Part shown: piece by piece, positions 5,991-48,057 of the stretch
Numbering within the stretch: the stretch's first letter is position 1
Layout of the letters: each line of letters opens with the position of its first letter
Assembly (NCBI GenBank): GCA_015064845.1
Contig: SVRL01000007.1
Location: 1,790-65,789 of the forward strand
From: Oscillospiraceae bacterium
GTDB lineage: Bacteria; Bacillota; Clostridia; Oscillospirales; CAG-272
Length of the DNA stretch: 64,000 nucleotides
Direction of reading: 5' to 3'
Notes under the pieces: model-generated
Database searches by the model: none
The model's input: only the letters and a program-made list of their open reading frames with translations
Told to the model about the DNA's origin: nothing
Program-made: the position numbers and the translations under genes

Positions 5991-6008
5991 TATAAGTAAT
6001 AACAAGGT

Positions 6009-6080
6009 CTTTTGTAACTGACGGAAGCGGAAAGAACCGCAATGGAAGCAAAAGGCAATAAAAGCCGACCGTCTGGGCAG
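6009..6080 (+). promoter_or_regulatory. ZTP (pfl-motif) riboswitch aptamer
   Basis: P1 is CTTTTG/CAAAAG. Conserved ACTGACGGAA is present. P2 is GCGG-AAAGAA-CCGC, followed by an A-rich linker and the 3' sub-domain GCCGACCGTCTGGGCA. It lies upstream of fhs, a classic ZTP-regulated gene. Confidence 0.85.
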
Positions 6081-6109
6081 TCTTATATTCGTATAAGACT
6101 GCCTTTTTT
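6076..6109 (+). terminator. Riboswitch expression-platform terminator
   Basis: 12-bp stem GGCAGTCTTATA-TTCG-TATAAGACTGCC followed by TTTTTT. Its 5' arm overlaps the aptamer's CTGGGCA. Confidence 0.85.
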
Positions 6110-6192
6110 GAAACCATCGGATTTTCTTTGAAGAAAACCCGAAAGACGAAAAGCGAATCTTGAACTGTCATGATCAGAAAGGATGTTTAACT

Positions 6193-10521: not shown

Positions 10522-10627
10522 AAAATGCCTCCTTGTTTGATGATATAACGGAATTTCACTGCTTTTATTGTATCACGAAGCTTTTCATTTTTCAATAAAA
10601 CGGATGAAGAAAGAAGAAAAAATTATA

Positions 10628-12247: not shown

Positions 12248-12410
12248 GATGTTTCCTCCGAAACTATTTCTTTTTTTCAGTATAACAACTGTTTCTGTTC
12301 TTGTCAATGAGATTTTCTTTGACAAAAGAGAAAAGCCGTGTTATAATAATGAAATAAGCAATGCTTGTCCGAAGATGCTTTTTGAAATAAAACGAATTGA
12401 GGTAACGCTG

Positions 12411-14173: not shown

Positions 14174-14224
14174 TATAGACGTGAAATAAATTTAGTATAT
14201 AAAATTAAGAAGAGGAAAACACTT

Positions 14225-15592: not shown

Positions 15593-15647
15593 TATTTATC
15601 GTTTGATACTTCATCGAACTCGCGTTAACACAGCATATAAAAGCAAA

Positions 15648-15684
15648 GAAAACCGCTGCAGATCAGACTCTGTGGCGGTTTTCT
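15648..15684. terminator. Bidirectional hairpin terminator between convergent genes
   Basis: AAAACCGCTGCAG-ATCAGACT-CTGTGGCGGTTTT, with A- and T-runs on either side. Confidence 0.7.
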
Positions 15685-15699
15685 TAAATCAGTTTAAGG

Positions 15700-32712: not shown

Positions 32713-33312
32713 AATACTATGTTTTCTAATGTATATAGGTTTTATTAATATAAAAAAATATTATTATTAGAAAAAAATGTGTTTTTTTCTCAAAAAAACA
32801 ATCGAAGGATATTTTTTGGCAAGATGCCCACAAAGTCAAAAATGTATTTTTGTGTTTGTTGGATATGCACAAATGGGAAAACGCCTTTCTCCGTCTTCTC
32901 TTAGCCGTTCGGAGAAAGGATGTTAAATGTGATTTACCATTTTCGGTTATTGCTGAACAGTTTTGTTAAAACGGACGAAAAATCAAGCAAAATGCTGAGT
33001 TTTTCGTCCTTTTAATGTTTGGGTTAGTAAATGTGAATCACACGAAAAATGTTTCTTTTTCATTCGGCTCGAGCGCTGATTTTATCCTTATATATATACC
33101 GTGCGTGTAAGCTTGGGGAAGCGGTTGTTTTTTAAGAAATTTTTGCAAAATTAAGAATGAATTGTTAAAAAGAGAAAAAAAGTGGCTTGCAAACTTATTG
33201 ATTTTTTGTGAATGAAGTGGTAAGATATTAAAGTAATAAGCGCTATGTGCCGTTCGAAGACGGTACGAGTTTTAGTCTGCACATTGCAAATTCCGTTAAG
33301 GAGGAAAAATCT

Positions 33313-36300
33313 ATGGAAAACTCAAAGCTGAAAAGAGTTGTCGCGCTGGTGCTCAGTGCCATCATGGTTTTCTGTCTTTTTGTGACAGCAAATCCCGCTT
33401 CTCTCGTTGCTGCAAGCGCAGCTGCCGAGAAGGACACTTCGACGACCGACGAGGCCCTTGAAATTCTCGATGACGATAAGTGGCTCGAGTACAAGGCAAA
33501 GAACTCTAAGTATCCGAATTACAAAGGTGAAAACATCGTGATTGATTCGGATGACCTTGCCTCTCCCGAAAAGGTTGAGGTTGTTGAATATGACGGAAAA
33601 CAAAACGTTGTATTCGTTCCTGATACCGGTTCTGTTTCCTGGAAAGTGAACATTACCGAATCCGGTCTCTACGCAATGGACATTCTTTACAACTATCTCG
33701 GTTCCGACGATACAAGAGCGAAGGCGACCGACATTGAAAGAACGCTCCGCATTGACGACGAAGTTCCTTACACCGAACTCCGTAATCTGGTCTTCACAAA
33801 GAAATGGGTAGACCAACTGAACAAATACGTTCTCAAAGACGGCGAAATGGTTAAAGAAAAGAGCAACAAAAACCTTTCTGCTACCATTTACGATGCAAAC
33901 GGCAATGCTGTGAAGACCTTCGCGGATGAAGAACTTCCCATGGCTGTTTACGATGCAAACGGCAATATTGTAACCATTTTCTATGAAAAAGACGGCGCTG
34001 ATAACGAACGCCGCCCGGTTAAGGTTCTTGAACCCGAATGGACGGAATACACGCTGAACGACCCGACGGGTAACTACAGCGGCGAATTCTACATCTATCT
34101 TGAACAAGGCGAACACGTTATCACTTTGGAAGCGCAGAAAGAATATATGTACGTAGCTTCCATTACCTTGCGCGCAAGAGAATCCTTGATGTCTTATGAA
34201 GAATATAAGAATATGTACAAGGATAAACCGAAAGCTACAACTTCTGTCAGATTGGAAGCAGAATACTTTACTTCCACTTCTTCCCGTACCATTTACGGTC
34301 AGAACGACAGATCTTCCGCAATCACTTCTCCTCAGCACCCCAGCTATTCCTGGATCAACGACGTCGGCGGACGTAACGGAAGCTACAACTGGGCAAGTAT
34401 AGGTCAGTGGATCGAATGGACTTTCACGGTTCCCGAAAGCGGTATGTACGTTATCAGTACCAGATTCCTTCAGGACGCTCTCGAAGGTTTGTACGTATCC
34501 CGCCGTATTTACATTGACGGCGAAGTTCCTTTTGAAGAAGCAAACAATCTTCAGTTCTTGTTTGACAAATCCTGGCAGGGCGATACGCTCAACGCGGGCG
34601 GCGAAGACCTGGAGTTCTATTTTGAAAAAGGTGAACACACCTTCAGACTTGAAGTTAACTACGGCGGTCTCGGCGACATGGTTGCCGAACTTCGTGACTG
34701 CGTAACCAGAATCAATGCGATTTACGTTAAGATTCTTACCATTTCCGGTAGCAGCCCCGACCCGTACATGGACTATTTCTACTATCAGAGAATGCCTGAA
34801 GAAATTCAGGAAATGGGTCAGCTCGCTAAGAGACTCACTGCTGTTTCCGAACAGATGAAGGCGATCAGCGGCGGCGAAAGCAGCTCCAGTACCGCGACTG
34901 TTGAAAACGTGGCGCGTGTGCTTGAAAAAATGTCCAAAGACTCCGAACGTCAGATTGCTAAGAACTTTGCTCAGCTCAAATCTTACATCGGTAACCTTGG
35001 TACATGGATCAATAACATCGGTCAGCAGGCTTTGATCGTTGACTATTTTGAAATTAAACCCGCAGGCGGCGAAGACCCCAAGGGCGAAGGCAACTTCTTT
35101 GTAAACGCTTGGTATGAAATCTGTATGTTCTGGTACAGCTTCATCCGTGATAATTCCTCCTATGGTTCTGCCGAAGGTCAGGAAGGCGTTACAACTGTAG
35201 ACGTATGGACAACGGTTTCCCGTGAATATACACAGATCATCCGTACCATCATCGACCAGGATTTCGCTAAAGAATATCCCAACATCGCAATCAACCTCAA
35301 ACTCGTTACAATGGGTACACTCCTTCCCGCAACGCTTTCCGGCGTAGGTCCCGACGTTATGATGGACGTTACCTCTTCCGACTGTATCAACTATGCGGTT
35401 CGTGGCGCGGTTCTTGACCTCAGCAAATATGAAGGCTTCAATGAAATGCGTTACGGCAACCCCGAAACAGGTGTGGAAGCTTACTTCCATGAATCTTCCT
35501 GGACTCCCTTTACCGTAGCTCTCGACTCTTCCGAAGGTGAACAGGCGGTTTTCGGTATTCCGGAAAAACAGAGCTTCAACGTTATGTTCTACCGTAAAGA
35601 CATCTTTGCGGACCTCGGTCTCAAAGTTCCCAATACATGGGATGAATTTAACGCGATCATGCCGATCCTCGTTTCTCAGAACTATGATATCGGTATGTCT
35701 CACGATATCGGTGTTTTCAATACTTTCGTATATCAGCACGGCGGTGAATTGTACACCAACGGCGGTACCACAATCTCCTTTGACGAAGACGTAACGCTCG
35801 ATGCATTTACTGAACTTTGCAAATTCTTCACAACTTACAACTTCCCGTTGAAGTTTGACGCTGCGAACCGTTTCCGTTCCGGCGAAATGCCGATGTTCAT
35901 CGGTGACTATATCACATACTACAACCAGTTTACCGTATTCGCTCCTGAATTGAAGGGCTTGTGGGGCTTCACAACCGTTCCCGGTACCGTTCAGGAAGAC
36001 GGAACAGTTAACAAATCTATCGTTACGACCATGAACTCCATCGTTATCATGATGGATGCTGCTGACAGAGGCAAAGATCAGCTCGGCTTCAACTTCATCA
36101 AGTGGTGGATGAGTGGCGACATTCAGGGTCAGTATGCAAATGAACTCGTTGCACTTCTCGGTCCTGCCGGTAAGTACGCAACAGCTAACATCCATGCATT
36201 CGGCGATATGTCTTGGACAGCAAACGAACTCGCGGAAATCGAAAATCAGTTCGCTAACCTCAAGGGTGTTCCGGAAATGCCGGGTAGTTACATTATTGCC

Positions 36301-36450
36301 CGTAACATCGAATTTGCATTCCTTGATGTTTACAACAACGACGCAGTTCCCAGCGAAGCGCTTCAGGACTATACCAATACAATCAACGCGGAATTTACAA
36401 GAAAGCGTGAAGAGCTCGATCGTAAATTCTTCATTCCTGCAAAGAAATAA
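33313..36450 (+). CDS. Giant extracellular solute-binding protein: signal/anchor, two CBM6/35-like beta-sandwich modules and a CUT1-type sugar-binding domain
   Basis: AAGGAGG RBS and ATG at 33313. Hydrophobic N-terminus. Duplicated module: SVSWKVNITESGLYAMDILY...GEHVITLEA and WIEWTFTVPESGMYVISTRF...GEHTFRLEV. The C-terminal 450 aa are SBP_bac_1-like (PNTWDEFNAIMPIL). Confidence 0.85.
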   Translation: MENSKLKRVVALVLSAIMVFCLFVTANPASLVAASAAAEKDTSTTDEALEILDDDKWLEYKAKNSKYPNYKGENIVIDSDDLASPEKVEVVEYDGKQNVVFVPDTGSVSWKVNITESGLYAMDILYNYLGSDDTRAKATDIERTLRIDDEVPYTELRNLVFTKKWVDQLNKYVLKDGEMVKEKSNKNLSATIYDANGNAVKTFADEELPMAVYDANGNIVTIFYEKDGADNERRPVKVLEPEWTEYTLNDPTGNYSGEFYIYLEQGEHVITLEAQKEYMYVASITLRARESLMSYEEYKNMYKDKPKATTSVRLEAEYFTSTSSRTIYGQNDRSSAITSPQHPSYSWINDVGGRNGSYNWASIGQWIEWTFTVPESGMYVISTRFLQDALEGLYVSRRIYIDGEVPFEEANNLQFLFDKSWQGDTLNAGGEDLEFYFEKGEHTFRLEVNYGGLGDMVAELRDCVTRINAIYVKILTISGSSPDPYMDYFYYQRMPEEIQEMGQLAKRLTAVSEQMKAISGGESSSSTATVENVARVLEKMSKDSERQIAKNFAQLKSYIGNLGTWINNIGQQALIVDYFEIKPAGGEDPKGEGNFFVNAWYEICMFWYSFIRDNSSYGSAEGQEGVTTVDVWTTVSREYTQIIRTIIDQDFAKEYPNIAINLKLVTMGTLLPATLSGVGPDVMMDVTSSDCINYAVRGAVLDLSKYEGFNEMRYGNPETGVEAYFHESSWTPFTVALDSSEGEQAVFGIPEKQSFNVMFYRKDIFADLGLKVPNTWDEFNAIMPILVSQNYDIGMSHDIGVFNTFVYQHGGELYTNGGTTISFDEDVTLDAFTELCKFFTTYNFPLKFDAANRFRSGEMPMFIGDYITYYNQFTVFAPELKGLWGFTTVPGTVQEDGTVNKSIVTTMNSIVIMMDAADRGKDQLGFNFIKWWMSGDIQGQYANELVALLGPAGKYATANIHAFGDMSWTANELAEIENQFANLKGVPEMPGSYIIARNIEFAFLDVYNNDAVPSEALQDYTNTINAEFTRKREELDRKFFIPAKK

Positions 36451-36474
36451 AATTTAGCAAAGGAGAATACGGAC

Positions 36475-37437
36475 ATGTCAGAAAATGCTGTTGGAAAAAC
36501 CCAAAAAGCGCCGAAACCCGTGGCGCGTAAAGAAATGACCAAGTGGCAATGGACATGGAAAGAAATGAAACGTAACTATGCCGCATATCTTATGTGCGCA
36601 CCGTACTTCCTCATTTTCTTCACATTTACCGTTTTGCCTGTTATTCTTTCGGTATTTTTCAGTTTCACAGTTTTTAATATGATTGAGCCTCCGAAGTGGT
36701 ACGGCTTGGGTAACTACATGCGTCTCTTCCTGGATGACGAAATCTTCATTCAGGCGATCATGAACACACTCGTGTTCGCCGTTATGACGGGACCTGTTTC
36801 TTACCTTCTCTCGTTGTTTACCGCTTGGTTCATCAACGAACTTCCTCCGAAGATCAGAGCGGTTGTAACCTTGATCTTCTACGCACCTTCTCTTTCCACA
36901 GGTATGACATTTATCTGGAAGATCCTCTTCGACGGTGACTCCTATGGTTATGCCAACTCCATCCTTATGCGTTTGGATATTATTCAGGCGCCGATTCAGT
37001 TCTTCCAGAACGAAACTTACGTAATGCCTCTTTGTATCGTTGTTGCCCTCTGGACATCTTTGGGTGTATCCTTCCTTTCCTTTATCGGTGGTTTGCAGAC
37101 AGTTCCGAAGGACCAGTTCGAAGCTGCTGCGGTTGACGGTATCAAGAACAGATGGCAGGAACTTTGGTACGTAACCCTTCCGAACATGAAGCAGCAGATG
37201 CTCTTCGGTGCGGTTATGGCGATTACACAGTCCTTTAACTTCGGTACGGTTGTAAACGACCTTGCCGGCTTCCCCAGCGTAAACTATTGCGCACATACAA
37301 TCATGCACCATCTTCAGGACTACGGCGGCCAGCGTTTCGAGGTTGGTTATTCTTCCGCGATCGCGGTTGTGCTCTTCATCATGATGATCGGCTCCAACAT
37401 GCTTGTAAATAAAATTTTGAACAAGGTGGGACAATGA
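36475..37437 (+). CDS. Sugar ABC transporter permease (MalF-type), pair 1
   Basis: 6 TM helices and an EAA loop (FEAAAVDGIKNRWQELWYVTLP). Confidence 0.92.
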   Translation: MSENAVGKTQKAPKPVARKEMTKWQWTWKEMKRNYAAYLMCAPYFLIFFTFTVLPVILSVFFSFTVFNMIEPPKWYGLGNYMRLFLDDEIFIQAIMNTLVFAVMTGPVSYLLSLFTAWFINELPPKIRAVVTLIFYAPSLSTGMTFIWKILFDGDSYGYANSILMRLDIIQAPIQFFQNETYVMPLCIVVALWTSLGVSFLSFIGGLQTVPKDQFEAAAVDGIKNRWQELWYVTLPNMKQQMLFGAVMAITQSFNFGTVVNDLAGFPSVNYCAHTIMHHLQDYGGQRFEVGYSSAIAVVLFIMMIGSNMLVNKILNKVGQ

Positions 37438-37438
37438 T

Positions 37439-38314
37439 ATGTCAAAGAAATTAAGAACAAGAAATCATAAAGTTGTCCTCAACCGTTCCGCGGGAGGCGA
37501 CTTCGGAATTACAGTATTCCTGGTAATTTTCGGCGCGTTCATGTTTATTCCGCTGTACTACGCAATCGTACAGTCTCTCAAACCGCTTGATGAACTTTGG
37601 AACTATCCTCCGAAATTCTACGTTGTAAAACCCACGTTCAGCAACTTCGGTGATATGTTTAAGAGTATGTCTTCTTCTTGGGTTCCGTTCTCTCGTTACA
37701 TTTTTAACACCGTCCTCATTTCCGTAGGCGGTACGTTCGGTAACTTGTTCCTCGGTTCTCTTGCAGCTTACGTTGTATCCAAAATCAAATTCCCCGGCCG
37801 TAATATGTTGTTCGGCGCAGTTCGTCTTTCTCTTATGTTTACGGCTACCGTTACCGCGATCGTAAACTATATGACAATGAGTGCGCTCGGCCTCGTTGAT
37901 ACTTATTGGGCATTGATCATCCCCGCATGGGGCGCAACGCTCGGTATGTTCCTTATGCGTCAGTTCATGGTTTCCGGTATTTCCGACGCCGTTCTGGAAT
38001 CTGCCCGTCTTGATGGTTCCAGCGAACTTCGTACCTACTGGACCATTGCAATGCCGATGGTAAAACCCGCATGGCTGACACTTATCGTGTACTCCTTCAA
38101 GGATTTGTGGAACACCGGTGCTTCCACTTATATCCAGAGTGAACAGCTCAAAACCTTCAACTATGCAATTTCTCAGATCGTATCCGGCGGTATCGCCCGT
38201 GCGGGTGTCGGCGCGGCTGCTGCGGTTGTTATGTTGATCGTTCCCGTAACCGTATTCGTAATCAGCCAGAGTAATATCGTTGAAACGATGTCTACTTCCG
38301 GTATGAAAGACTAA
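37439..38314 (+). CDS. Sugar ABC transporter permease (MalG-type), pair 1
   Basis: EAA loop (LESARLDGSSELRTYWTIAMP). 1-nt gap to the upstream gene. Confidence 0.92.
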   Translation: MSKKLRTRNHKVVLNRSAGGDFGITVFLVIFGAFMFIPLYYAIVQSLKPLDELWNYPPKFYVVKPTFSNFGDMFKSMSSSWVPFSRYIFNTVLISVGGTFGNLFLGSLAAYVVSKIKFPGRNMLFGAVRLSLMFTATVTAIVNYMTMSALGLVDTYWALIIPAWGATLGMFLMRQFMVSGISDAVLESARLDGSSELRTYWTIAMPMVKPAWLTLIVYSFKDLWNTGASTYIQSEQLKTFNYAISQIVSGGIARAGVGAAAAVVMLIVPVTVFVISQSNIVETMSTSGMKD

Positions 38315-38334
38315 TTATAAGGGAGGAAGCAATT

Positions 38335-40488
38335 TTGAAAAAATTAACAAGAATAGTTGTGTTGCTGTTGAGCTTCGTCCTCCTTGCCGGTGGCGTAGCT
38401 TGCCAGGCGGCAGAAGCTATGTACTACACCTATACCTACTCCATTAACGGCGAAGTTCTCACTTCTCCTCATGCTTATACTCCGGATAAATCCGTTAACT
38501 CCTATACGATGAATTTGTCCGAACCTTTGAATGATCCCAAGGATATTTTCGTTGACGAAAAAGGCAACGGCTATATCTACATTTCCGATGTTGATGCAAA
38601 CGGCAACGGTCGCGTTGTCGTTTGCGACCCCAACTTCATTTATCAGTACACCATCAGCGAATTCACAAACGCGCAGGGCGTACCGGATAAACTGAAATCT
38701 CCCGAGGGTCTCTTCATTTATGAAACTTCTCTTTACGTTTGCGATAAAGAGAATGCGCGTATCGTTATTTTCGATACACAGACGAAGGAATTCAAGTCTA
38801 TCATTGAAGCTCCCGAAGCAGGCGTTATGGGTTCGGATACCGTATTCCGTCCCGTTGCTGTCGGCGTAAACGCTTCCGGAACCACTTATATCGTTTCCGA
38901 CCAGACTTATTCCGGTATTATTGCTTTGAACCCCGACGGTTCTTTCCAGGCATTCCTCGGCGCACAGAAGACATCCGTTTCCTTGGCTGTCCGTATCCGC
39001 CGTATGATTTTCCCCACCATTACAACAGAATCCTATATCTCTACTCCTTATAAGAATTTGACCATGGACGACGAAGGTCAGATGTGGGCAACCATCATCT
39101 TTGGTCCGGATGAAGAAAAATCTTTGACCACTGCCATCCAGTCTCTTTCCACCGATGCAACCTACGCACCGATCAAGAGATTGAACGCAAAAGGTGATGA
39201 TATCATGGTTCGTAACGGCTTCGCAATGCCTGCCGGCGAAATCATGTTCAGCGACATTAAGGATATGACCAAAGAAGTTGGTCCTTCCGAACTCGTTGAT
39301 ATTGCAATGGGTCCCAACGGTATGTGGTCTGTTGTTGACTCCAAACGCGGTAAGATTTATACCTACGATATGGAAGGTAACCTCTTGTTTGCGTTCGGTG
39401 ACAAAGGTCAGCAGCTCGGACACCTTTTCACTCCCGTTGCTATCACATATCGCGGCAGCGATATCATGGTTCTTGACAGTAACCTTGATGCTGTTATCGT
39501 TTATAAGAGAACAGACTACGGCGACGTTATCGACCAGGCCCTCATGCACAATGAAAAACGTGAATATTCCGCAGCATTTGCTGACTGGCAGGATATTCTC
39601 AGAAGAAACCAGAACTTCGACGCTGCTTACGTTGGTATCGGTAAAAACCTGTACCGTCAGGGCGATTACGAAAACGCAATGCAGTATTACAAAGACGCAC
39701 ACGAAACCGAAAACTATTCCGTTGCTTTCCAGGCTTACAGAAAACAGTCCACAGAAAAGTCTATCGGTTGGATTGCTTTGATTGCTGTTGTTGTAATCAT
39801 TGCGCTCAGCAAAGCTTTCGGTTATATCGGCAGAAAGAACAAAGCCGGTGTGGTTAAAGTCGGCAAACGTACCCTTTGGGAAGAATTCCTTTACGGCTTC
39901 TATGTAATCCTTCATCCGTTTGACGGTTTCTGGGATTTGAAACACGAAAAACGCGGCTCCGTTCGCGGCGGTCTCTGCATTTTGCTCCTTACCGTTCTTT
40001 CCGTTGTTTATAATAATATCGGCTCCGCTTATCTCTTTGGCGGCGGCGACAAAGTAAACGTAGCAGGTCCGATGATCTCTGTTTTGGTTCTCGTTGCTCT
40101 TTGGGTCATTGCAAACTGGTGTCTTACCACTTTGTTTGACGGCGAAGGCAGCTTGAAGGACATCTTCATTGCAACATGCTACTCTCTCATGCCGATTCCG
40201 ATCATCATGATCCCCGCAACCATCGCAACCAATTTCTGCTCTCTCGCAGAAGCTGAATTTATTACTCTTGCTCTCGGCATTGCGTATGTATGGACCGGTA
40301 TGCTCATCGTCTTCGGTTCCATGACAACTCACGGCTACGGCATGGGACGTAATATCGCAATCTGCTTCTTTACCATTATCGGTATGGTATTTATCACGTT
40401 CTTGGCAGTATTGTTCTGGAACTTGATTACCCGAATGGTTTCCTTTGTTTCCGATATTATCACGGAAATTTCGTATCGCACAGATTAA
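38335..40488 (+). CDS. Signal peptide, NHL-repeat beta-propeller, TPR and C-terminal Yip1-like multi-TM domain
   Basis: TTG start 8 nt after GGGAGG. At least five NHL-like blades (e.g. PKDIFVDEKGNGYIYISD, PEGLFIYETSLYVCDKENARIVIFD, PVAITYRGSDIMVLDSNLDAVIVY). TPR (YRQGDYENAMQYYKDA). Yip1-like segment (ILHPFDGFWDLK) followed by 5 TM helices. Confidence 0.8.
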   Translation: MKKLTRIVVLLLSFVLLAGGVACQAAEAMYYTYTYSINGEVLTSPHAYTPDKSVNSYTMNLSEPLNDPKDIFVDEKGNGYIYISDVDANGNGRVVVCDPNFIYQYTISEFTNAQGVPDKLKSPEGLFIYETSLYVCDKENARIVIFDTQTKEFKSIIEAPEAGVMGSDTVFRPVAVGVNASGTTYIVSDQTYSGIIALNPDGSFQAFLGAQKTSVSLAVRIRRMIFPTITTESYISTPYKNLTMDDEGQMWATIIFGPDEEKSLTTAIQSLSTDATYAPIKRLNAKGDDIMVRNGFAMPAGEIMFSDIKDMTKEVGPSELVDIAMGPNGMWSVVDSKRGKIYTYDMEGNLLFAFGDKGQQLGHLFTPVAITYRGSDIMVLDSNLDAVIVYKRTDYGDVIDQALMHNEKREYSAAFADWQDILRRNQNFDAAYVGIGKNLYRQGDYENAMQYYKDAHETENYSVAFQAYRKQSTEKSIGWIALIAVVVIIALSKAFGYIGRKNKAGVVKVGKRTLWEEFLYGFYVILHPFDGFWDLKHEKRGSVRGGLCILLLTVLSVVYNNIGSAYLFGGGDKVNVAGPMISVLVLVALWVIANWCLTTLFDGEGSLKDIFIATCYSLMPIPIIMIPATIATNFCSLAEAEFITLALGIAYVWTGMLIVFGSMTTHGYGMGRNIAICFFTIIGMVFITFLAVLFWNLITRMVSFVSDIITEISYRTD

Positions 40489-40504
40489 AACAGGAGGTTA
40501 ATCT

Positions 40505-43500
40505 ATGAAAAAAATCAGAATTCTTTCAGCGGTTCTGGCAATTCTGCTTGCTTTTTCGGCAATAAGCCTGCCTGTTTTTGGGGCAGATATTGAAAATTAT
40601 CCTTCGACTGAAGACTGGGAATCCCAACAGTTGAAGGTTGCCGAAATGACTTGCATGTATGAAGATGACAACTGGAGAATGTATTTCGATGAAAAGTCTG
40701 CAGAATTTGCTTTGCAGAACAAAAAAACCGGCGAATATACTTTCTCTAACCCTTATGACATTGATTTGATTTCCACTGCATTGTCCAATGATGATCTTGC
40801 AAATGCAGACCCCATCAGACAGGCATTGCTTTCTCAGATTATCTTGACTTATGAAGATATTGAGACAGCTGTAACTTACACCATGAAGAGCTATACTGAC
40901 GCGGTTCTTGCCGGCGGTCAGGTTGCTTTCACTCCTATTTCTGACGGTGTTCGTGTAGAATATGCGATCGGTACGTTGGAAACCAAGCGTCTGTTCCCTA
41001 TGTGGGTTGACCAGACCAGCTTTGAAAATCAGATCCTCAGCAAATTCCAGGAAAATACCGCAAGCTTTACTTCCGTAGAAAAAAATATCTATAACTTGCT
41101 TATGGATAAGAAAAACGGTTCGGTTTACAAATTGGTTGACCCCGTTAAACCCGGCTCTACCTATGACCCTCAGTCTGTACCGAACCCCAACGTTCCCGAA
41201 ACTTACGAATATCTCGTAAACAATCCGGATAAGCAAATGTACGTTTTGATTACGAACTCTGCTCGTACCAAAAAGACATTGGAAAGCATGATCCGTAAAT
41301 ATTGCCCCGAATATACCTTTGACAAATTGGAAGAAGACCATGAACTCACAGGCTATGAAGGCAATGAAAAAGAACCTCCGCTTTTCCGTATGGCTCTTGA
41401 ATACAGAGTTGATAAGAAAGGCTTGACGGTTACAATCCCCGCAAAATCCATTCGTTTCAATGAAACAAACTACCGCCTCAGCACCATTGCCGTTCTTCCT
41501 TACTTCGGCTGCTCTGCTACAGGTAAGACTACCGGTGACGTTGGTGACGAAGACGGTTCCATGACCAGAGAAGACGGTTATATTTTCATTCCTGACGGCA
41601 GCGGTACGCTCCTCAGCTTCTATAATGAAGACGGCACGTTGAAGACGGACGTTAACTTGACCGGTTCTCTTTATGGCAACGACTATACGTTCGAAACCAT
41701 CGATGCAGTAAATGCGAATGAAAAAACATACCGTGTTCCCGTATTCGGTTTGGTAGAAGAATATTCCATTACCAAGGTCGTTCAGGGTAATACCAGAGGT
41801 TCCGTTGGTGGTGAAACAGCTCCTTCCTATAATAAGAAGACTGATTACACTCGCGGTTTCTTAGCAATTATCGAAGAAGGCGATTCCTTTGCTTCCATTC
41901 GTGCCGACCTTAAGAAGGCACCTTGGGCAGGCGCTTCCGGTAGCGTTGTTTACAATACTGTATACACGAACTTTACCGTTAAACGTAACGACTCTGTTAA
42001 CGTAGGTTCTTCTATTGGCGGAGGCAACTCTTCCATGACTGCAACCGATGATACCAAGTACATTGGTAACTATTCCGTTCGTTATATTATGCTTTCCGAT
42101 CCCGAAGTTGCTGCACAGAACAACTATTCTTCCTTTGAACCTTCCTACATCGGTATGGCTAAGGCTTACCGCAACTACTTGATCGAAAACGGCAGCATTG
42201 ACGAACTTCAGAAACAGGAAACTGAATCTAAACTTCCTCTTTATATCCACGCTTTCGGTGCTTTGAATGCACAGGATACCTTCCTTTCCATTCCGATTAC
42301 CGTGGAAAAACCCTTGACAACATTTGCTGACGTTATTACCATGAGCGAAGACCTCAAAAAGGAAAACATCACAAACGTGAACTTCATTCTTGAAGGCTTT
42401 GCAAACGGCAATATGTCCAAACCTTACTATCCCACTTATGTAAAATGGGGTAAAAAGGTTGGCGGCGAAGATGGCTTGAATGAACTTCTCCTTTATGCTG
42501 ATCAGAACGGCATCGGCGTATATCCCGAATTCGATTTCTCCACAGCTTATTGGGTAAAAACATTCTCCGGCTTCTCTTACCGTAAACACGCTGCAAGAGC
42601 GATGAGCGGACGTTACACAACAAAACGTGACTACGACTACGTATTCCAGGTAGTTAAAAAGTTCGGTATGGGTAACGTTGTTTCCTCCGGCGCATACTTG
42701 AATCTCTTTGAAAAGTTTGCAAAAGATTATGACAAATATGCAATCGGCGGTATCTCCGTTCTTTCTCTCGGTACAGATTTGAACTCTGACTTCAACGAAG
42801 ATTATCCTATTACCCGCGAAGATTCCAAAGTGAATACACAGGATCTTTTGGCTAAGATTTCCGAGAAATACGGCAATGTTATCGTCGAAGGCGGTAACGC
42901 ATATTCCTGGGCTTACGCAACGGATATCGTTAATATTCCTCTCGGCAACAGCCGTTACCAGAAGGCTCCCGATTCCATTCCTTTCATCGGTATGGTTCTC
43001 CACGGTTACATGAATTACACCGGCGGTGTTATCAATACATCCGGCGACATTCAGTACGAAATTCTGAAATCCTTGGAAAACGGCGCTTCTCTCTATTTCT
43101 TGCTTTCTTACCAGAACTCCAATGAATTCAAGAACTCTTTCGCAATGGGCTTGAATGAAAACTATTCCGTAAACTATCAGACATGGCGCGATGACGTTGT
43201 GAAGTATTATAACCAGCTCAACTCTGCGATCGGTTCTCTCCAGACAGCAACCATCACAGATCATGGTTTCATCGATGCTTACAACGCAAACGCAGAAACG
43301 GCAAACTATCTCTTCGGTCAGTACAATGCTTCTAAGAATGCATATTTCGGTTTGAAAGCTGATTACGAAGCTGCCATCAAGAACACTGATTTGATGATTG
43401 CTCAGAACAGAGTTTCCGAAGCAAAAGATTCTTTCCAGAGAGAAAGAGAATTGCTTCCTCTTATGAACAAAGCGCTTGCTCAGTATGAAGCTTGCCTTGC

Positions 43501-44011
43501 TTTCGTAGAAAAGGAATCTGCTTCCGACGTTGTTTACGTAACTTATACCGACGATAACGGAAATGAATCCACATTCTATATCAACTACAACAGCCATGAC
43601 GTTGCGGTTGAATATGAAGGCGGCATCTATATTCTTAAAGCAGAATCCTTTGTTAACGTAGAGGATATCACTTCTGCAGAACTTGTGTCTTTGACTTCTG
43701 AAGTTGTTACCAACGCTCTTAAACCTACCGCAGGTCAGCTTAAGAACTATCAGAACGCGAAAGAAAAGTATGATGAAGCGGTTCTTACCGGTAACCAGAA
43801 CTTGATTAACAAAGCGAAAGAATCTTTGAATAATACAATCAAGGCAATCGGAACAAAAACAGCAGAAAACGTTTTGAAGATGACTTCCGCAGACGGCAAG
43901 ACCGTTGCATACTTCAACTACGAAACCTCTACCGTTCTCGTTCCCGTTTCTGAAACGGAATATAAGATTATTGCTTCTCAGTCTTATGTAATCTATAATA
44001 CAGCTGATTGA
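40505..44011 (+). CDS. 1168-aa secreted protein of unknown function (possibly DUF5696-like, from memory)
   Basis: AGGAGG RBS and signal peptide (MKKIRILSAVLAILLAFSAISLPVFGA). No catalytic motif I can name. The central region is compatible with a TIM-barrel-like fold (NVNFILEGFANGNM...GIGVYPEFDF). Confidence 0.8.
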   Translation: MKKIRILSAVLAILLAFSAISLPVFGADIENYPSTEDWESQQLKVAEMTCMYEDDNWRMYFDEKSAEFALQNKKTGEYTFSNPYDIDLISTALSNDDLANADPIRQALLSQIILTYEDIETAVTYTMKSYTDAVLAGGQVAFTPISDGVRVEYAIGTLETKRLFPMWVDQTSFENQILSKFQENTASFTSVEKNIYNLLMDKKNGSVYKLVDPVKPGSTYDPQSVPNPNVPETYEYLVNNPDKQMYVLITNSARTKKTLESMIRKYCPEYTFDKLEEDHELTGYEGNEKEPPLFRMALEYRVDKKGLTVTIPAKSIRFNETNYRLSTIAVLPYFGCSATGKTTGDVGDEDGSMTREDGYIFIPDGSGTLLSFYNEDGTLKTDVNLTGSLYGNDYTFETIDAVNANEKTYRVPVFGLVEEYSITKVVQGNTRGSVGGETAPSYNKKTDYTRGFLAIIEEGDSFASIRADLKKAPWAGASGSVVYNTVYTNFTVKRNDSVNVGSSIGGGNSSMTATDDTKYIGNYSVRYIMLSDPEVAAQNNYSSFEPSYIGMAKAYRNYLIENGSIDELQKQETESKLPLYIHAFGALNAQDTFLSIPITVEKPLTTFADVITMSEDLKKENITNVNFILEGFANGNMSKPYYPTYVKWGKKVGGEDGLNELLLYADQNGIGVYPEFDFSTAYWVKTFSGFSYRKHAARAMSGRYTTKRDYDYVFQVVKKFGMGNVVSSGAYLNLFEKFAKDYDKYAIGGISVLSLGTDLNSDFNEDYPITREDSKVNTQDLLAKISEKYGNVIVEGGNAYSWAYATDIVNIPLGNSRYQKAPDSIPFIGMVLHGYMNYTGGVINTSGDIQYEILKSLENGASLYFLLSYQNSNEFKNSFAMGLNENYSVNYQTWRDDVVKYYNQLNSAIGSLQTATITDHGFIDAYNANAETANYLFGQYNASKNAYFGLKADYEAAIKNTDLMIAQNRVSEAKDSFQRERELLPLMNKALAQYEACLAFVEKESASDVVYVTYTDDNGNESTFYINYNSHDVAVEYEGGIYILKAESFVNVEDITSAELVSLTSEVVTNALKPTAGQLKNYQNAKEKYDEAVLTGNQNLINKAKESLNNTIKAIGTKTAENVLKMTSADGKTVAYFNYETSTVLVPVSETEYKIIASQSYVIYNTAD

Positions 44012-44029
44012 GGAAAGGAGAGCTGAAAA

Positions 44030-45028
44030 ATGACAAATGAAATTACTTCGAAAAAGAAGAAACGCAAAAGCTCTTCGTTGATCGAAAGAAGAGACCGACT
44101 CGGTTGGGTTTTCATTCTTCCGTTCCTTATTGGTTTGGTTTTCCTTTACGCAAGTGTAATTTGGGAATCCTTTACCTACAGCTTTGCGCAGTACAATGTT
44201 ATTCCCGCAATCAAAGGCGGCGGTTATTCCCTTACTTTTGTTAAATTTGACAACTTTTCTGAAATTCTTTTGAAAGTTGTTGAAGGCGACACAGAAGGTA
44301 AAACCTATATTGAAATGATCTTTACAAGCTTTGCTTCTCAGATCGTTGAAATTGTTATTATCGTTATGTTCTCTTTGTTCATCGCGGTTCTTTTGAACCA
44401 GAAGATGATCGGCCGTACCGCATTCCGCGCAATTTTCTTCATTCCTGTCGTAGTTGGCGCAGGTATCATTGCAAAGATTGACGCAACGGCAAGCGAAATT
44501 TTGGATTCCATGGCAAGTCTTGACGGTATCGATATGGGTACTGCAAACGGCGGCGAAGGTTCCTCCGGACTTGTTAGTGCTATGGACGTTAATATGTTGC
44601 TCGGTAGCCTCGGGTTACCGACAACATTCACCGATATGATTGTCGGCCTTGTTGAAAGTATTTATTCCATCGTAAACCGCGCGGGTGTTCAGATGTTGAT
44701 CTTCCTTTCCGGTTTGCAGTCCATTTCTCCTGCGATTTATGAATCTTGCTCCATCGACGGTGCTTCCGGTTGGGAATCTTTCTGGAAGATCACGTTCCCG
44801 ATGCTCAGCCCCATGATTCTCGTAAATGCTTTCTACACCATTATCGACTCCTTTACGGCAGAATCCAACGAAGTTATGCAGGCCATCATCGCAATTTCCC
44901 CGAACGGCGTTCCCAGCGGCACACAGTCCGCATTGGCTTGGACATATTTCGGTATCGTTATCGTAGCGCTCTTGCTTGTAGCGCTCCTCTTCAAGAACTT
45001 CGTGTTCTATAACCGCAGAAATGACTAA
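44030..45028 (+). CDS. Sugar ABC transporter permease (MalF-type), pair 2
   Basis: Basic N-terminus, 6 TM helices, a large extracytoplasmic loop and an EAA loop (YESCSIDGASGWESFWKITFP). Confidence 0.9.
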   Translation: MTNEITSKKKKRKSSSLIERRDRLGWVFILPFLIGLVFLYASVIWESFTYSFAQYNVIPAIKGGGYSLTFVKFDNFSEILLKVVEGDTEGKTYIEMIFTSFASQIVEIVIIVMFSLFIAVLLNQKMIGRTAFRAIFFIPVVVGAGIIAKIDATASEILDSMASLDGIDMGTANGGEGSSGLVSAMDVNMLLGSLGLPTTFTDMIVGLVESIYSIVNRAGVQMLIFLSGLQSISPAIYESCSIDGASGWESFWKITFPMLSPMILVNAFYTIIDSFTAESNEVMQAIIAISPNGVPSGTQSALAWTYFGIVIVALLLVALLFKNFVFYNRRND

Positions 45029-45048
45029 GAAGGGAGGAATAAAATAAT

Positions 45049-46107
45049 ATGAATAATAACCAAGAAACCACGCCCCGCGTGCTGAAAAGCTCTAAAAACA
45101 AAATTCGCGTTGAATTTGAGAGAACCTCCCTTAAAGAGAGAATGAAAGCGAAATATTTGAACAGCCTTTTCTATAAGAAATTGCTTGTTGCGGTTTTCCG
45201 TTTCATCCTTCTCCTCGGTATTTCCTATATCATTTTGTTCCCGTTTTTCTCGAAGATTTCGGCTTCCTTTATGAGCCCTCAGGACTTCCTGCAGAGTGAC
45301 GTTAAGATGATTCCGAAATATCCGACGTTGAACACTTACAAATATTTGATTACGGAAAACCAGTATTTCAAGGCAATGATCAACTCGTTCCTTCTTTCCG
45401 GTATCTGTGCATTGATCCAGATGTTCGTTGCAGCGTTTGTTGGTTACGGTTTTGCGAAATTTAAATTCAAAGGACGCAACCTCATCTTTATCTTCGTAAT
45501 GCTCACGATGATCGTTCCGCACCAGATTCTTGCTTCTTCTTTCGTTCAGAAGTTTATCTATTTCGATATCTTCGGACTTCTTGAAAAAACAGGTTTATAC
45601 AGTGCGTTGGGTATGTCACAAGGTATTTATAACACCTATGTTCCGTTGATCCTTCTCTCGCTGACGGGTCTTGCGTTCAAGAACGGTCTCTTTATCTTCT
45701 TGATGCGTAGCTACTACCGCGGCGTTCCGGATGAACTTGAAGAATCCTCTTTCATCGACGGTTACGGCGTATTCAAGACATTCTTTAAGATCATTCTTCC
45801 GATTTCCGGTCCGATGTTGATCACAGTATTTATCCTTGCTTTCTCTTGGCAGTGGACTGACATTTTCTATGTCAACACATTCCTTCCCAATGCGGAAAGC
45901 TTCCTCTTGACGAGCAATCAGTTCTGGGCTACCATGCCTGACACCTTGGAACTCCTTGGTCAGGCTGCCGGCACAAGCCTCCAGACTTTCGAAGTTGCTG
46001 TTAAGAATGCTGCAGGTCTTCTCGTTGTTCTTCCCTTGATTATCATGTATATCTTCTGTCAGAGATTCTTGGTTCAGGGTATTGAATCTTCCGGTCTTGC
46101 AAACTAA
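45049..46107 (+). CDS. Sugar ABC transporter permease (MalG-type), pair 2
   Basis: EAA loop (LEESSFIDGYGVFKTFFKIILP). Last gene before the terminator. Confidence 0.9.
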   Translation: MNNNQETTPRVLKSSKNKIRVEFERTSLKERMKAKYLNSLFYKKLLVAVFRFILLLGISYIILFPFFSKISASFMSPQDFLQSDVKMIPKYPTLNTYKYLITENQYFKAMINSFLLSGICALIQMFVAAFVGYGFAKFKFKGRNLIFIFVMLTMIVPHQILASSFVQKFIYFDIFGLLEKTGLYSALGMSQGIYNTYVPLILLSLTGLAFKNGLFIFLMRSYYRGVPDELEESSFIDGYGVFKTFFKIILPISGPMLITVFILAFSWQWTDIFYVNTFLPNAESFLLTSNQFWATMPDTLELLGQAAGTSLQTFEVAVKNAAGLLVVLPLIIMYIFCQRFLVQGIESSGLAN

Positions 46108-46117
46108 TTTCCAAAAT

Positions 46118-46150
46118 AAAAGAGCTTTCGCTTAGGCGAAGGCTCTTTTT
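46118..46150 (+). terminator. Terminator closing the seven-gene operon
   Basis: AAAAGAGCTTTCGC-TTAG-GCGAAGGCTCTTTTT. Confidence 0.85.
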
Positions 46151-46183: not shown

Positions 46184-46212
46184 TTGACAAATTCCTTATG
46201 TTAATGTATAAT
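46184..46212 (+). promoter_or_regulatory. Consensus sigma-A promoter for the acidic small protein gene
   Basis: TTGACA (46184-46189), a 17-nt spacer and TATAAT (46207-46212), with TG immediately upstream. Confidence 0.8.
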
Positions 46213-46247: not shown

Positions 46248-46556
46248 ATGAACGAAAACATGAAAGACTTTGGAATGCCTTACCCTCATTTTCCGGAAGG
46301 AGTGGAAAATGACGAAGTATTGGAACAGAGAGAAATGGACGTCAAAGAGACCGAAGATGAAATTTTGGGAGAACAGGATTTTATCATAAACGGAGGCGAT
46401 TTTGGCACTGTATCGGTAGAAAAAGAATTTTCCGTTAATATGGATGAATATTTTGAAGAAGAATTCGAAGAAGAATGTGCGTTTGTGCCTGTGGAAGAAA
46501 CAGACGATTACGAATTTATGCCCGATATCAATTTTGATATCTATAATGCAGAATAA
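46248..46556 (+). CDS. Small, extremely acidic protein of unknown function
   Basis: 102 aa with a GGGGAA RBS. Roughly one residue in three is Asp or Glu, with very few basic residues. It has its own promoter and terminator. Confidence 0.7.
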   Translation: MNENMKDFGMPYPHFPEGVENDEVLEQREMDVKETEDEILGEQDFIINGGDFGTVSVEKEFSVNMDEYFEEEFEEECAFVPVEETDDYEFMPDINFDIYNAE

Positions 46557-46572
46557 AAACAGCCAATGTCTA

Positions 46573-46602
46573 ACGACAGCGATCTCACGCTGTCGCTTTT
46601 TT
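46573..46602 (+). terminator. Terminator of the acidic-protein gene
   Basis: CGACAGCG-ATCTCA-CGCTGTCG followed by CTTTTTT. Confidence 0.85.
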
Positions 46603-46653: not shown

Positions 46654-48057
46654 ATGAAAAAAATTGCTATTGTATATCCGAGAAATCTGAATGAACTTCG
46701 CAAACGCGCGTTAGAGATTCTTTCTTCCACCGTTCTTGATTATACGAAAGAATATCCTGTTTGTGTTTCGGATGATCGCGCGGAAGGACTTTCGGATTTT
46801 CGCCGTATTTATATCGGAACGAAAGAAAGCAATGCTTATATTGCCGAAAACAGTAAAGGTACGTTGACTGCTTCGGAAGAATATTTTATTTTGGTGGAAA
46901 ACGATACCGTTATCATTGAAGGTTTTGACGATGCGGGCGCATTGTACGGCGCGGTTGATTTTTATGATCGGTATATTTTGTCCAATGAATATCCGGATAA
47001 TCCCGATATTTACCGTATCAACTTTTTTGAGAGAGCAAACTTGCCTAATTTTGAATTTCGGTCAAAACCGTCGGTGGCAGAGCGCGGACTCTGGACTTGG
47101 GGGCATGTGATCTATGATTATAAAGGTTATCTTGATCATATGATGATGCTCAAGATGAATCGTGTGATTATCTGGAATGATTTTCTGCCTGTGAATGCCC
47201 GTGAAATTACGGAATATGCCCATGCAAGAAATATCAAGGTAATATGGGGTTTTGCATGGCTTTGGGATACCGATTGCGCGAAGTTTGATATGACTGCTCT
47301 GCGCGGCGAATCGGTAAAAGTTTTTGAAAAATTTGAAAAGGAATTCGGCGACACGGAACTTGACGGCATCTATTTCCAAACGTTCACGGAACTGAACAGG
47401 GAACATATTGACGGCGTTCTGATTGCCGAGGCTGCCGCTGACTTTGTCAATCGCACGGCGAAACTCTTTTATGAAAAATATCCGAACATTGAATTGGAGT
47501 TTGGTTTGCATGCCAACTCCGTGAAAAAAAGACTGGAATTTATCAGCGCGGTGGATTCCCGTATTCGAATCGTTTGGGAAAATTGCGGCTCCTTTCCATT
47601 TTCTTATATTCCGAATGACGTTAAGGATTTTGATGAAACCATGGAATTTGTCCGAAAAATTGCTTCTTTGCGCGGCAGTAACGACCGTTTCGGCGTTGTT
47701 ACCAAAGGCTTGGTTAAATTGGATTGGAGTTGCTTTGAACATTGCGCGGGCGCGCAGTATATCGGTGTCAGCACGGGCCGCATGAAACATGACCGCGTGG
47801 ACCGCAAAGCGCCGATCTGGAAATATATTCAGGCGAATTGGATCGCTTATGCGCATAAGGCACTGGAAGCCGTTCGGGTCATGCGTGATTGCAAACAAGG
47901 AGATCTCATCGTATATGCTCTTGTTGAGGACGGTATGTTTGAAGAAAATCTGATGTGGCCTGTTGCTTTATATGCGCAAATGCTTTGGGATTGTGATGAG
48001 GCACTGCCCTCTTTGATGAGCCGTGTTGCCTTGAGAAGCAACGTGGCGTTTGCCTGA
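46654..48057 (+). CDS. Putative glycosidase-like protein (GH20/GH67-type N-terminal alpha/beta domain plus a TIM-barrel-like core); family unassigned
   Basis: 467 aa, no signal peptide. EEYFILVENDTVIIEGFDDAGALYGAVDF resembles the non-catalytic N-domain of GH20/67/84/115 enzymes. This is followed by GLWTWGHVI...NRVIIWNDF. Confidence 0.55.
   Translation: MKKIAIVYPRNLNELRKRALEILSSTVLDYTKEYPVCVSDDRAEGLSDFRRIYIGTKESNAYIAENSKGTLTASEEYFILVENDTVIIEGFDDAGALYGAVDFYDRYILSNEYPDNPDIYRINFFERANLPNFEFRSKPSVAERGLWTWGHVIYDYKGYLDHMMMLKMNRVIIWNDFLPVNAREITEYAHARNIKVIWGFAWLWDTDCAKFDMTALRGESVKVFEKFEKEFGDTELDGIYFQTFTELNREHIDGVLIAEAAADFVNRTAKLFYEKYPNIELEFGLHANSVKKRLEFISAVDSRIRIVWENCGSFPFSYIPNDVKDFDETMEFVRKIASLRGSNDRFGVVTKGLVKLDWSCFEHCAGAQYIGVSTGRMKHDRVDRKAPIWKYIQANWIAYAHKALEAVRVMRDCKQGDLIVYALVEDGMFEENLMWPVALYAQMLWDCDEALPSLMSRVALRSNVAFA

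Follow-up and report, generated by a model that had tools for sequence, protein, structure and literature searches.

The 64,000-nucleotide stretch of an Oscillospiraceae bacterium genome analyzed here (contig SVRL01000007.1; the whole stretch is called the window) contains seven consecutive genes that encode a very large solute-binding protein, two pairs of sugar-type permeases of the ATP-binding cassette (ABC) class, and, between the two pairs, a membrane protein with NHL and Yip1 domains and a secreted protein of the family DUF5696 (Table 1). The locus raises the question of whether these genes specify two ordinary sugar importers that happen to be neighbors or the parts of a single system. 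The seven parts are obligately co-inherited, and with moderate confidence we read them as one composite, extracytoplasmic-facing glycan acquisition system that is built on a CUT1 (MalEFGK-type) importer.

Conservation of the seven-gene cassette

A scan of one genome per GTDB species recovered 210 relatives of the gene 5 product, and the best 80 of the 210 were examined as loci. All 80 were from uncultured gut or rumen Clostridia, with record titles that include Oscillospiraceae, Acutalibacteraceae, "Candidatus Apopatosoma," "Candidatus Avispirillum," and Eubacterium sp. CAG:841. In tblastn searches with the window proteins, 62 of the 80 loci had all seven genes in the same order and orientation. 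The 18 loci that were not scored as complete were mostly those with a match near a contig end; L051 and L085 fell below the scoring thresholds for gene 4 coverage and gene 5 identity, respectively. The genes that were found in these 18 loci stood in the expected order, and no locus demonstrably lacked a gene. Gene order was constant even as the identity of gene 5 dropped to ∼30%. Median identities over the 62 genomes were highest for the first permease pair (69% for gene 2 and 70% for gene 3), followed by gene 7 (54%), gene 6 (50%), gene 4 (46%), and genes 1 and 5 (38% each). Metagenome contigs show an arrangement that agrees with this.

Every DUF5696 context examined, in Clostridia and Bacilli, contained the whole cassette of seven or eight genes. 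The cassette is found in Butyrivibrio fibrisolvens pNP243, Cohnella luojiensis, Paenibacillus cellulosilyticus, Paenibacillus mucilaginosus, and Neobacillus kokaensis, and seven genes are likewise present in loci L092, L093, and L095; in L094 a contig end cuts the cassette inside the first gene. In P. cellulosilyticus and P. mucilaginosus, which are two of the three Bacilli loci with a fused gene 4, the genes for the Yip1 protein, DUF5696, and the first permease of the second pair overlap by 4 nt, and in Neobacillus these genes abut or overlap by 1 nt. Conservation of this kind is far beyond chance. The first-pass annotation of the window had stated that its reading would fall if the cluster were not conserved as a unit; the seven genes proved to be a conserved unit in every locus examined, in the 80 species-level genomes as well as in the cultured organisms.

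Two anciently diverged permease pairs

Genes 2 and 3 (pair 1) and genes 6 and 7 (pair 2) encode two different, anciently diverged permease heterodimers. When the permeases of the window, Butyrivibrio, and Paenibacillus were compared by BLASTP, positional counterparts scored 134 to 320 bits versus 16 to 77 bits between paralogous pairs. The permeases thus fall into four orthogroups (A1, B1, A2, and B2), and the two-pair design is therefore older than the split between Clostridia and Bacilli. The same bit scores led us to reject a recent duplication of one pair.

All four permeases keep an EAA loop (FEAAAVDG in gene 2, LESARLDG in gene 3, YESCSIDG in gene 6, and EESSFIDG in gene 7) with the pattern E-x4-DG and a proline ∼20 residues downstream, and the membrane-subunit signature of CUT1 importers is thus present twice. 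Since this coupling loop is retained throughout, both pairs should dock an ABC ATPase. The product of gene 6 falls under the Pfam cutoff for BPD_transp_1, yet it aligns with the other permeases and retains the loop; the alignment also places an insertion in its extracytoplasmic loop, which is longer than that of gene 2. With this one sub-cutoff case, all of the domains that the first-pass annotation had predicted for the operon (SBP_bac_1, four BPD_transp_1 domains, NHL, Yip1, and DUF5696) were found with Pfam or NCBIfam models.

These results bear directly on the simplest explanation of the locus, which is that two ordinary, independent sugar importers are adjacent by chance with two unrelated passenger genes between them. 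Each permease pair alone is a normal MalFG-type heterodimer, and in Firmicutes it is not unusual for the ATPase gene to be missing (PMC7658222). However, there are two pairs but only one binding-protein gene, all seven genes keep the same order and orientation in each locus examined from the two bacterial classes, every DUF5696 context has the whole cassette, the 4-nt gene overlaps cross the supposed boundary between the importers, and the four permease orthogroups are ancient. Thus, a chance adjacency seems very improbable, in agreement with the earlier proposal that the locus is more than two neighboring importers.

Source of the ATPase

No ABC ATPase was found in the operon or anywhere else in the 64-kb window, either by a scan for Walker A and LSGGQ motifs or by tblastn with the MalK-type ATPase that is linked to the cassette in other organisms. 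The MalK/MsmK-type ATPase with a C-terminal TOBE/OB domain that belongs to a CUT1 importer is therefore not encoded within the window. Similarly, tblastn detected no MsmK-type ATPase within 10 kb of the cassette in 86 Clostridia loci; the only matches were weak ones in L080 and L086, to ABC ATPases of other kinds (23 to 27% identity). In three Bacilli the situation is different: the first gene of the cassette, directly upstream of the binding-protein gene, codes for a MalK/MsmK-type ATPase in P. cellulosilyticus (ugpC type), P. mucilaginosus (MalK type), and N. kokaensis. In Firmicutes, CUT1 importers are known to draw on shared, unlinked "multitask" ATPases (PMC7658222), so the missing gene is ordinary and not, as had been supposed, a peculiarity of the system. 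It is expected that the ATPase for the window cassette is supplied in trans from elsewhere in the genome.

The first-pass annotation had also raised the alternative of an export machine. Export was rejected as the primary function because the permeases have the fold of type I importers and are encoded with a binding protein, and because the MalK-type ATPase is in cis in Bacilli.

A binding protein extended by CBM-like modules

The gene 1 product is an oligosaccharide-type binding protein that is extended by two modules resembling carbohydrate-binding modules (CBMs) and by a helical spacer. It consists of a signal or anchor segment (amino acids [aa] 1 to 37), two CBM35/6-like beta-sandwich modules (approximately aa 70 to 290 and 300 to 450), the spacer (aa 451 to 570), and a CUT1 solute-binding domain (aa 574 to 1045). 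The AlphaFold model (predicted local distance difference test [pLDDT], 81.5) is beta-rich over aa 75 to 450, followed by a long helical spacer and a C-terminal binding-protein fold. In Foldseek searches the model matched the oligosaccharide-binding proteins 5yse, 3uor, and 3jzj with TM-scores (target) of 0.75 to 0.80; the matches include binding proteins for sophoro-oligosaccharides and cycloalternan as well as MalE and GacH, with an overall TM-score range of 0.70 to 0.80. Together with the SBP_bac_1 match, this identifies gene 1 as an extracytoplasmic family 1 solute-binding protein of the CUT1 type. The Paenibacillus counterpart retains the full architecture, with 30% identity over 839 aa.

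The CBM-like modules had been noticed in the first-pass annotation, and that assignment can be upheld in part. Profile matches to the N-terminal modules recur among 30 homologues (CBM_35 in 15, Golvesin_C in 22, and CBM_6 in 4), and the two modules are homologous to each other (internal-repeat signal, E = 4e-5). On the other hand, all of these matches are below threshold, including the best CBM_35 match (E = 4e-5), and the Foldseek matches of gene 1 were dominated by the binding-protein domain and gave nothing informative for the modules. Because the weak matches recur and the modules are related to each other, a CBM-like nature is plausible.

The products of genes 1, 4, and 5 each begin with a hydrophobic signal or anchor. 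No lipobox was present in the gene 1 and gene 5 products of the window and ten other lineages, with the exception of the P. mucilaginosus DUF5696 protein. A binding protein that lacks a lipobox is unusual for monoderm bacteria, and therefore some other tether is needed for the giant binding protein and for gene 5.

An NHL propeller on a Yip1 membrane domain

Gene 4 encodes a protein that places an NHL propeller and a TPR outside the membrane on a Yip1 membrane domain. Its layout was defined by alignment of distant orthologues and of versions in which the gene is split. A signal peptide is followed by the propeller region (approximately aa 40 to 400), the TPR (approximately aa 400 to 470), and a transmembrane helix (aa 477 to 495); the C-terminal half consists of a cytoplasmic linker with the motif HPFDGFWDLKHEKRGS and the Yip1 domain (aa 523 to 690), in which hydropathy indicates five hydrophobic segments. 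The Yip1 match (PF04893) scores 52.5 bits versus a cutoff of 28.6, which places the protein in the family. The propeller is recognized by a ScyF-type model (E = 1e-8) and by the NHL domains of Thin, TRIM3, and TRIM71 in the PDB (E = 1e-8 to 1e-5); PDB sequence matches confirm both the NHL region and the TPR. The Butyrivibrio orthologue matches Pfam NHL (E = 2e-13) and a six-bladed-propeller model.

In Butyrivibrio, C. luojiensis, L092, L094, and L095, gene 4 is split into an NHL-transmembrane gene and a Yip1 gene, and the break falls after the single transmembrane helix. The motif HPFDGFWDLKHEKRGS (positions 39880 to 39930; approximately aa 516 to 532) immediately precedes the Yip1 helices, on the side predicted to be cytoplasmic, is near-invariant from Clostridia to Bacilli, and starts the separate Yip1 protein where the gene is split. 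Such placement and conservation make it a candidate contact site for a cytoplasmic partner.

DUF5696 and its predicted glycosidase fold

In the first-pass annotation, the gene 5 product was a secreted protein without a motif that could be named. It is a member of Pfam family DUF5696 and, at the level of predicted structure, a distant relative of known enzymes. The signal peptide is followed by an N-terminal region, a beta-sandwich (approximately aa 290 to 530), a (beta/alpha)8 barrel (approximately aa 575 to 925), and a helical/beta-sandwich C-terminal extension (aa 930 to 1168) that differs between lineages and is absent from the DUF5696 proteins of Bacilli and Butyrivibrio. Family members range from approximately 700 to 2,545 aa; the L063 orthologue (9974 to 15844; 1,956 aa) has a ∼1,000-aa C-terminal extension with no Pfam match. 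The family is large, with 4,824 representatives at 50% identity in public data at an E value of ≤1e-3 and 2,618 at an E value of ≤1e-30.

The AlphaFold model of gene 5 (pLDDT, 80; predicted template modeling score [pTM], 0.78) has the beta-sandwich, (beta/alpha)8 barrel, and C-terminal beta-sandwich of GH129-like and GH101 retaining glycosidases (GH, glycoside hydrolase), which is also the domain order of the 3,6-anhydro-D-galactosidase DagB (PMC5698469). DagB, a GH129-like enzyme, was the top Foldseek match (5opq and 8rzk; E = 6e-24), followed by the GH129 enzyme NagBb (5wzp; E = 9e-17) and GH101 endo-alpha-N-acetylgalactosaminidases (E = 1e-11 to 1e-13, with 2zxq and 3ecq as reference structures); GH31 and GH36 rank below GH101. 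TM-scores (target) on GH129-type targets were 0.64 to 0.66, with ∼10% identity in the structural alignments. Sequence comparisons gave a different result. Neither single-sequence phmmer nor a 32-sequence profile matched a glycoside hydrolase among all PDB chains, and a Pfam scan of 32 DUF5696 members at E values up to 10 found no glycoside hydrolase catalytic family. By the sequence criterion of CAZy, gene 5 is thus outside GH129 and GH101, to which the model relates it in fold only. It also differs from these enzymes in belonging to a separate Pfam family, in its extra N-terminal region and variable C-terminal extensions, and in always being encoded in a transporter cassette. The earlier statement that the operon has no recognizable glycoside hydrolase therefore stands for sequence and does not stand for predicted fold, and it is DUF5696 that would provide the processing component suggested at that time.

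Residue conservation was evaluated in 230 DUF5696 members from Clostridia and Bacilli. Four acidic residues, D364 and D393 in the beta-sandwich, D762, and E858, are conserved in at least 226 of the 230; together with R771, H833, and H920 they make up seven residues that are each conserved in at least 221, and R556, R771, H833, and H920 are conserved in at least 96%. D762, itself present in 226 members, lies just after predicted barrel strand 4. GH129 and GH129-like enzymes have only the nucleophile Asp in common, and in the DagB superfamily an Asp of the N-terminal domain belongs to the catalytic machinery (PMC5698469). The conservation of D762 together with D364 and D393 parallels this pattern, with an invariant Asp after strand 4 and invariant Asps in the preceding beta-sandwich. 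In a search for catalytic residues by conservation and predicted strand ends, only D762 was convincing, and an acid/base residue could not be identified as it can in DagB, GH129, and GH101. Position 814 (codon 42944 to 42946), at the end of predicted barrel strand 6, holds Asp in 29 of 32 close homologues; across the 230 members, 84% have Asp or Glu there, and the window and its two nearest relatives have Gly. Gly814 may reflect an active-site change specific to this lineage, or else it may indicate that this residue is not catalytic.

Given the modeled fold, DUF5696 may be catalytically competent. A rather unlikely alternative is that it is a catalytically dead, glycan-binding derivative of a glycosidase that, with the NHL propeller, serves as a surrogate receptor for pair 2, so that the locus would consist of two importers with no processing. 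Genes 4 and 5 do sit where a binding-protein gene would precede pair 2, in the window and in all loci; no canonical Asp/Glu pair can be assigned, residue 814 varies in 16% of the family, and there is no sequence match to any active glycoside hydrolase family. However, the conservation of seven residues at great evolutionary distance fits an active site better than a binding surface. Furthermore, a variable acid/base residue does not imply inactivity, because subfamilies of the nearest structural relatives conserve only the nucleophile (PMC5698469), and extra genes for ordinary binding proteins flank the cassette in several lineages.

Genomic neighborhoods and substrates

The genes around the cassette differ between lineages. 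In B. fibrisolvens the flanks carry a histidine kinase, a response regulator, GH43, and two extra binding proteins; in C. luojiensis they carry LacI, GH26, GH113, and GH9; GH2 and GH38 lie downstream in N. kokaensis; and GH30 and GH35 flank the cassette in L092 and L095, with LacI upstream in L092. Thus, a LacI protein or a histidine kinase with its response regulator adjoins the cassette in Butyrivibrio, Cohnella, and L092. Some large Paenibacillus genomes have two copies of the cassette (P0300 and P0306; P0287 and P0292). Substrate specificity probably differs between lineages, to judge from the differing flanking glycoside hydrolases, from the low conservation of gene 1 and DUF5696 relative to the other cassette genes, and from the two copies in some Paenibacillus.

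Genes for binding proteins of ordinary size (450 to 540 aa) are found directly beside the cassette in L087 (16507 to 19937), L090 (17 to 1369), L091 (1555 to 2931), and L094 (10096 to 11511), twice immediately after pair 2, as with the 471-aa binding protein of L094. There is none in the window operon. These proteins may be the receptors for pair 2 in the organisms that encode them.

It is also conceivable that the cassette recycles or remodels the cell's own envelope glycan, such as wall polysaccharide, capsule, or exopolysaccharide fragments, with the enzyme trimming the glycan and the two importers retrieving the pieces. Consistent with this, the operon of the window clade looks constitutive, has no regulator, and follows mnmA or iscS-nifU housekeeping genes in many species, and the cassette is present in essentially every sampled member of this uncultured lineage. 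However, the hydrolases that flank the cassette in Butyrivibrio, Cohnella, Neobacillus, and others are of the kind that act on plant or host glycans, sugar-type regulators adjoin it in other lineages, the two copies in large Paenibacillus genomes are as expected of nutrient systems diversified by substrate, and the leader of the window operon has conserved operator-like palindromes. Envelope recycling therefore seems to us an unlikely primary role, and more so than a receptor function for DUF5696.

Proposed mechanism

In the composite glycan acquisition system that we favor, the CBM-like modules of gene 1 would retain a polymer or other large glycan at the surface of the cell, where DUF5696 would cleave it. 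D762, at the end of predicted barrel strand 4, would be the likely nucleophile, and D364/D393 of the preceding beta-sandwich may form part of the active site. The gene 1 binding domain would hand products to pair 1, and pair 2 would import a second product, delivered by gene 1, by an ordinary binding protein encoded elsewhere, or straight from the enzyme and the propeller. Because genes 4 and 5 precede pair 2 in the way that the binding-protein gene precedes pair 1, it is suggested that they serve pair 2. The Yip1/NHL protein may keep the nonlipidated extracellular parts at the transporters. Energy would come from a shared MalK/MsmK-type ATPase encoded elsewhere in the genome; its counterpart is within the cassette in Bacilli.

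Several points weigh against this interpretation. It is from synteny and gene overlaps only that we infer a physical association of the cassette products. In sequence, DUF5696 resembles no glycoside hydrolase family, and the acid/base candidate D814 is replaced by Gly in the window lineage and substituted in 16% of the family. Ordinary binding-protein genes adjoin the cassette in several lineages, so pair 2 may be no more than another conventional importer served by a binding protein of its own. In the window clade, the operon lies among housekeeping genes with no regulator, unlike a typical inducible sugar locus.

A stronger form of the proposal is an obligate surface supercomplex of a hitherto undescribed type, an enzyme-coupled ABC importer in which DUF5696 and the NHL/Yip1 scaffold replace the binding protein of the second translocator, and glycan captured by gene 1 is cut and its two products are fed directly into two dedicated channels. 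We put this forward only tentatively, as a possibility that we doubt, with slightly more credence than a catalytically dead DUF5696.

Operon boundaries, leader, and neighboring genes

The map of open reading frames (ORFs) reproduced exactly the coordinates in the first-pass annotation, and the single operon proposed there is confirmed in its spacing, leader, and terminator (Table 1). The intergenic gaps are, in order, 24, 1, 20, 16, 18, and 20 nt. The mechanical ORF of gene 1 opens at a GTG at 33247, and the ATG at 33313 was taken as the start because it is preceded by AAGGAGG and is conserved in relatives.

Table 1. Coordinates of the operon genes and of the signals around them in the window
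Feature	Position	Strand	Details
Gene 1, 1045-aa binding protein	33313-36450	+	Pfam SBP_bac_1, E = 4e-14, aa 642-907
Gene 2, MalF/UgpA-type permease, pair 1, orthogroup A1	36475-37437	+	BPD_transp_1, E = 1.5e-9; closest NCBIfam, UgpA
Gene 3, MalG/UgpE-type permease, pair 1, orthogroup B1	37439-38314	+	BPD_transp_1, E = 6e-10; closest NCBIfam, UgpE
Gene 4, 717-aa membrane protein, TTG start	38335-40488	+	Pfam Yip1, E = 7e-14; weak TPR matches; NHL by ScyF-type model, E = 1e-8
Gene 5, 1168-aa secreted DUF5696 protein	40505-44011	+	Pfam DUF5696, E = 1e-133; signal peptide
Gene 6, MalF-type permease, pair 2, orthogroup A2	44030-45028	+	BPD_transp_1, E = 1e-3; NCBIfam UgpA and MalF
Gene 7, MalG-type permease, pair 2, orthogroup B2	45049-46107	+	BPD_transp_1, E = 4e-11; NCBIfam MalG, E = 4e-19
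Promoter-like element, TTGATT-17-nt spacer-TAAGAT	33198-33226	+	Nearly invariant block in the aligned leaders of 7 relatives; putative function
5' untranslated region hairpin	33246-33267	+	Hairpin scan
Intrinsic terminator closing the operon	46118-46150	+	14-bp stem, -21 kcal/mol, z = -4.5 versus shuffles, then a T run

The 600-bp leader (32713 to 33312) has a GC content of 38 to 40%, versus ∼46% within the operon. Its putative promoter scores under the threshold of a consensus promoter scanner, and the -10-like hexamer, TAAGAT in the window, is TAGTAT in most relatives. In an alignment fold with seven relatives, 3 of the 8 pairs of the leader hairpin keep pairing despite changes on both sides. 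Two palindromes, TTTGT-N9-ACAAA (32855 to 32873) and TAAAT-GTG-ATTTA (32924 to 32936), are nearly invariant in seven relatives and look like operator sites for some regulator. An Rfam search of the leader found no RNA family. At the other end, none of 200 shuffles folded as well as the terminator, which a simple scanner had missed, and the next gene has a perfect TTGACA-17-TATAAT promoter at 46184 to 46212, downstream of the terminator. The leader, the terminator hairpin with its T run, and this promoter make the operon boundaries sound.

Domain scans of the window proteins found no transcriptional regulator in the operon or in its flanks within the window. Both flanks are of the housekeeping type, with U32 peptidase, Maf, Nth, MgsA, a GFO/RNase H fusion, and MnmA upstream and a PHP phosphoesterase and GlpA-like dehydrogenases downstream. 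The fusion is a single 494-aa ORF (30165 to 31649) that joins a GFO/IDH/MocA oxidoreductase (aa 17 to 330) to an RNase H (aa 352 to 490); in the relative L002 these are two separate genes. The gene directly after the operon is a very acidic 102-aa ORF (46248 to 46556) with its own terminator (46574 to 46595) in addition to the perfect sigma-70-type promoter at 46184 to 46212. It is followed by a 467-aa protein (46654 to 48057) that has no Pfam match and, among the loci compared, has tblastn matches only in the two nearest, L001 and L009.

Farther away, a ZMP/ZTP riboswitch (6004 to 6085; 57.5 bits) precedes the gene for formate-tetrahydrofolate ligase (6160 to 7860) in a textbook arrangement. 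Genes for GH127 (beta-L-arabinofuranosidase type; 135 to 1946), GH31 (8053 to 10521), and GH20 (10628 to 12325), all on the minus strand, lie 20 to 30 kb upstream of the operon. The organism thus has other glycan-degrading enzymes, and no link between these genes and the cassette was found.

Relation to known systems

All components of the cassette come from known superfamilies, and its core is a CUT1 importer. Like MalEFGK2 of Escherichia coli and the MsmEFGK or MsmX-dependent systems of Firmicutes (TC 3.A.1.1), it combines an SBP_bac_1 domain with an oligosaccharide-binding fold, MalF/MalG-type BPD_transp_1 permeases with EAA loops, and a MalK/MsmK-type ATPase that may be unlinked and is in cis in the cassettes of Bacilli. 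It differs from them in having two nonidentical permease pairs per single binding protein, in the makeup of that protein, which is ∼1,000 aa long, carries two CBM-like modules and a helical spacer, and lacks a lipobox, and in the insertion of two obligate genes, for NHL/Yip1 and DUF5696, between the pairs. What is new is this fixed architecture, in which a giant binding protein fused to CBM-like modules is combined with two ancient permease pairs, an NHL/Yip1 protein, and a protein of an uncharacterized family with a predicted GH129/GH101 fold.

A precedent for gene 4 is YknW, a Yip1-domain protein that is an accessory subunit of the Bacillus subtilis ABC transporter YknWXYZ (PMC4887032). In both cases, a bacterial Yip1-domain membrane protein is encoded with an ABC transporter, and in YknWXYZ it also works with it (PMC4887032). 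However, YknYZ is an exporter of the MacB type that has a membrane fusion protein, whereas the partners in the cassette are type I importer permeases, and the Yip1 domain of the cassette is fused to, or paired with, an extracellular NHL propeller and TPR.

The cassette resembles the polysaccharide utilization loci (PULs) of Gram-positive bacteria and, by functional analogy, the Sus-like systems of Bacteroidota, in which glycan binding, cleavage, and import are encoded together, and larger genomes place it near other glycoside hydrolases and LacI or two-component regulators. Unlike in these systems, the seven-gene core is constant whatever the surrounding enzymes. In contrast to Gram-positive PULs, the window operon has no regulator and no classified CAZyme, and in contrast to Sus-like systems there is no TonB-dependent transporter, the carriers being monoderm. 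The literature searched contained no paper with "DUF5696" or "PF18952" in its full text, and searches that combined YIP1 family protein with solute-binding protein, or NHL, Yip1, permease, and PUL, returned nothing relevant to the cassette.

Implications

The carriers of the cassette include abundant, uncultured Clostridia of the gut and rumen as well as cultured members of Paenibacillus, Cohnella, Neobacillus, and Butyrivibrio, in which it can be tested directly. If DUF5696 is an enzyme, it would define a new glycoside hydrolase family, related in fold to GH129 and GH101, with approximately 4,800 cluster representatives. If the parts form a complex, they would constitute a new mechanism in monoderms that couples glycan processing outside the cell to ABC import, and they would give a role to bacterial Yip1 and NHL domains; the surface supercomplex, if it exists, would be a monoderm counterpart of the SusCD "utilisome" of Bacteroidota.

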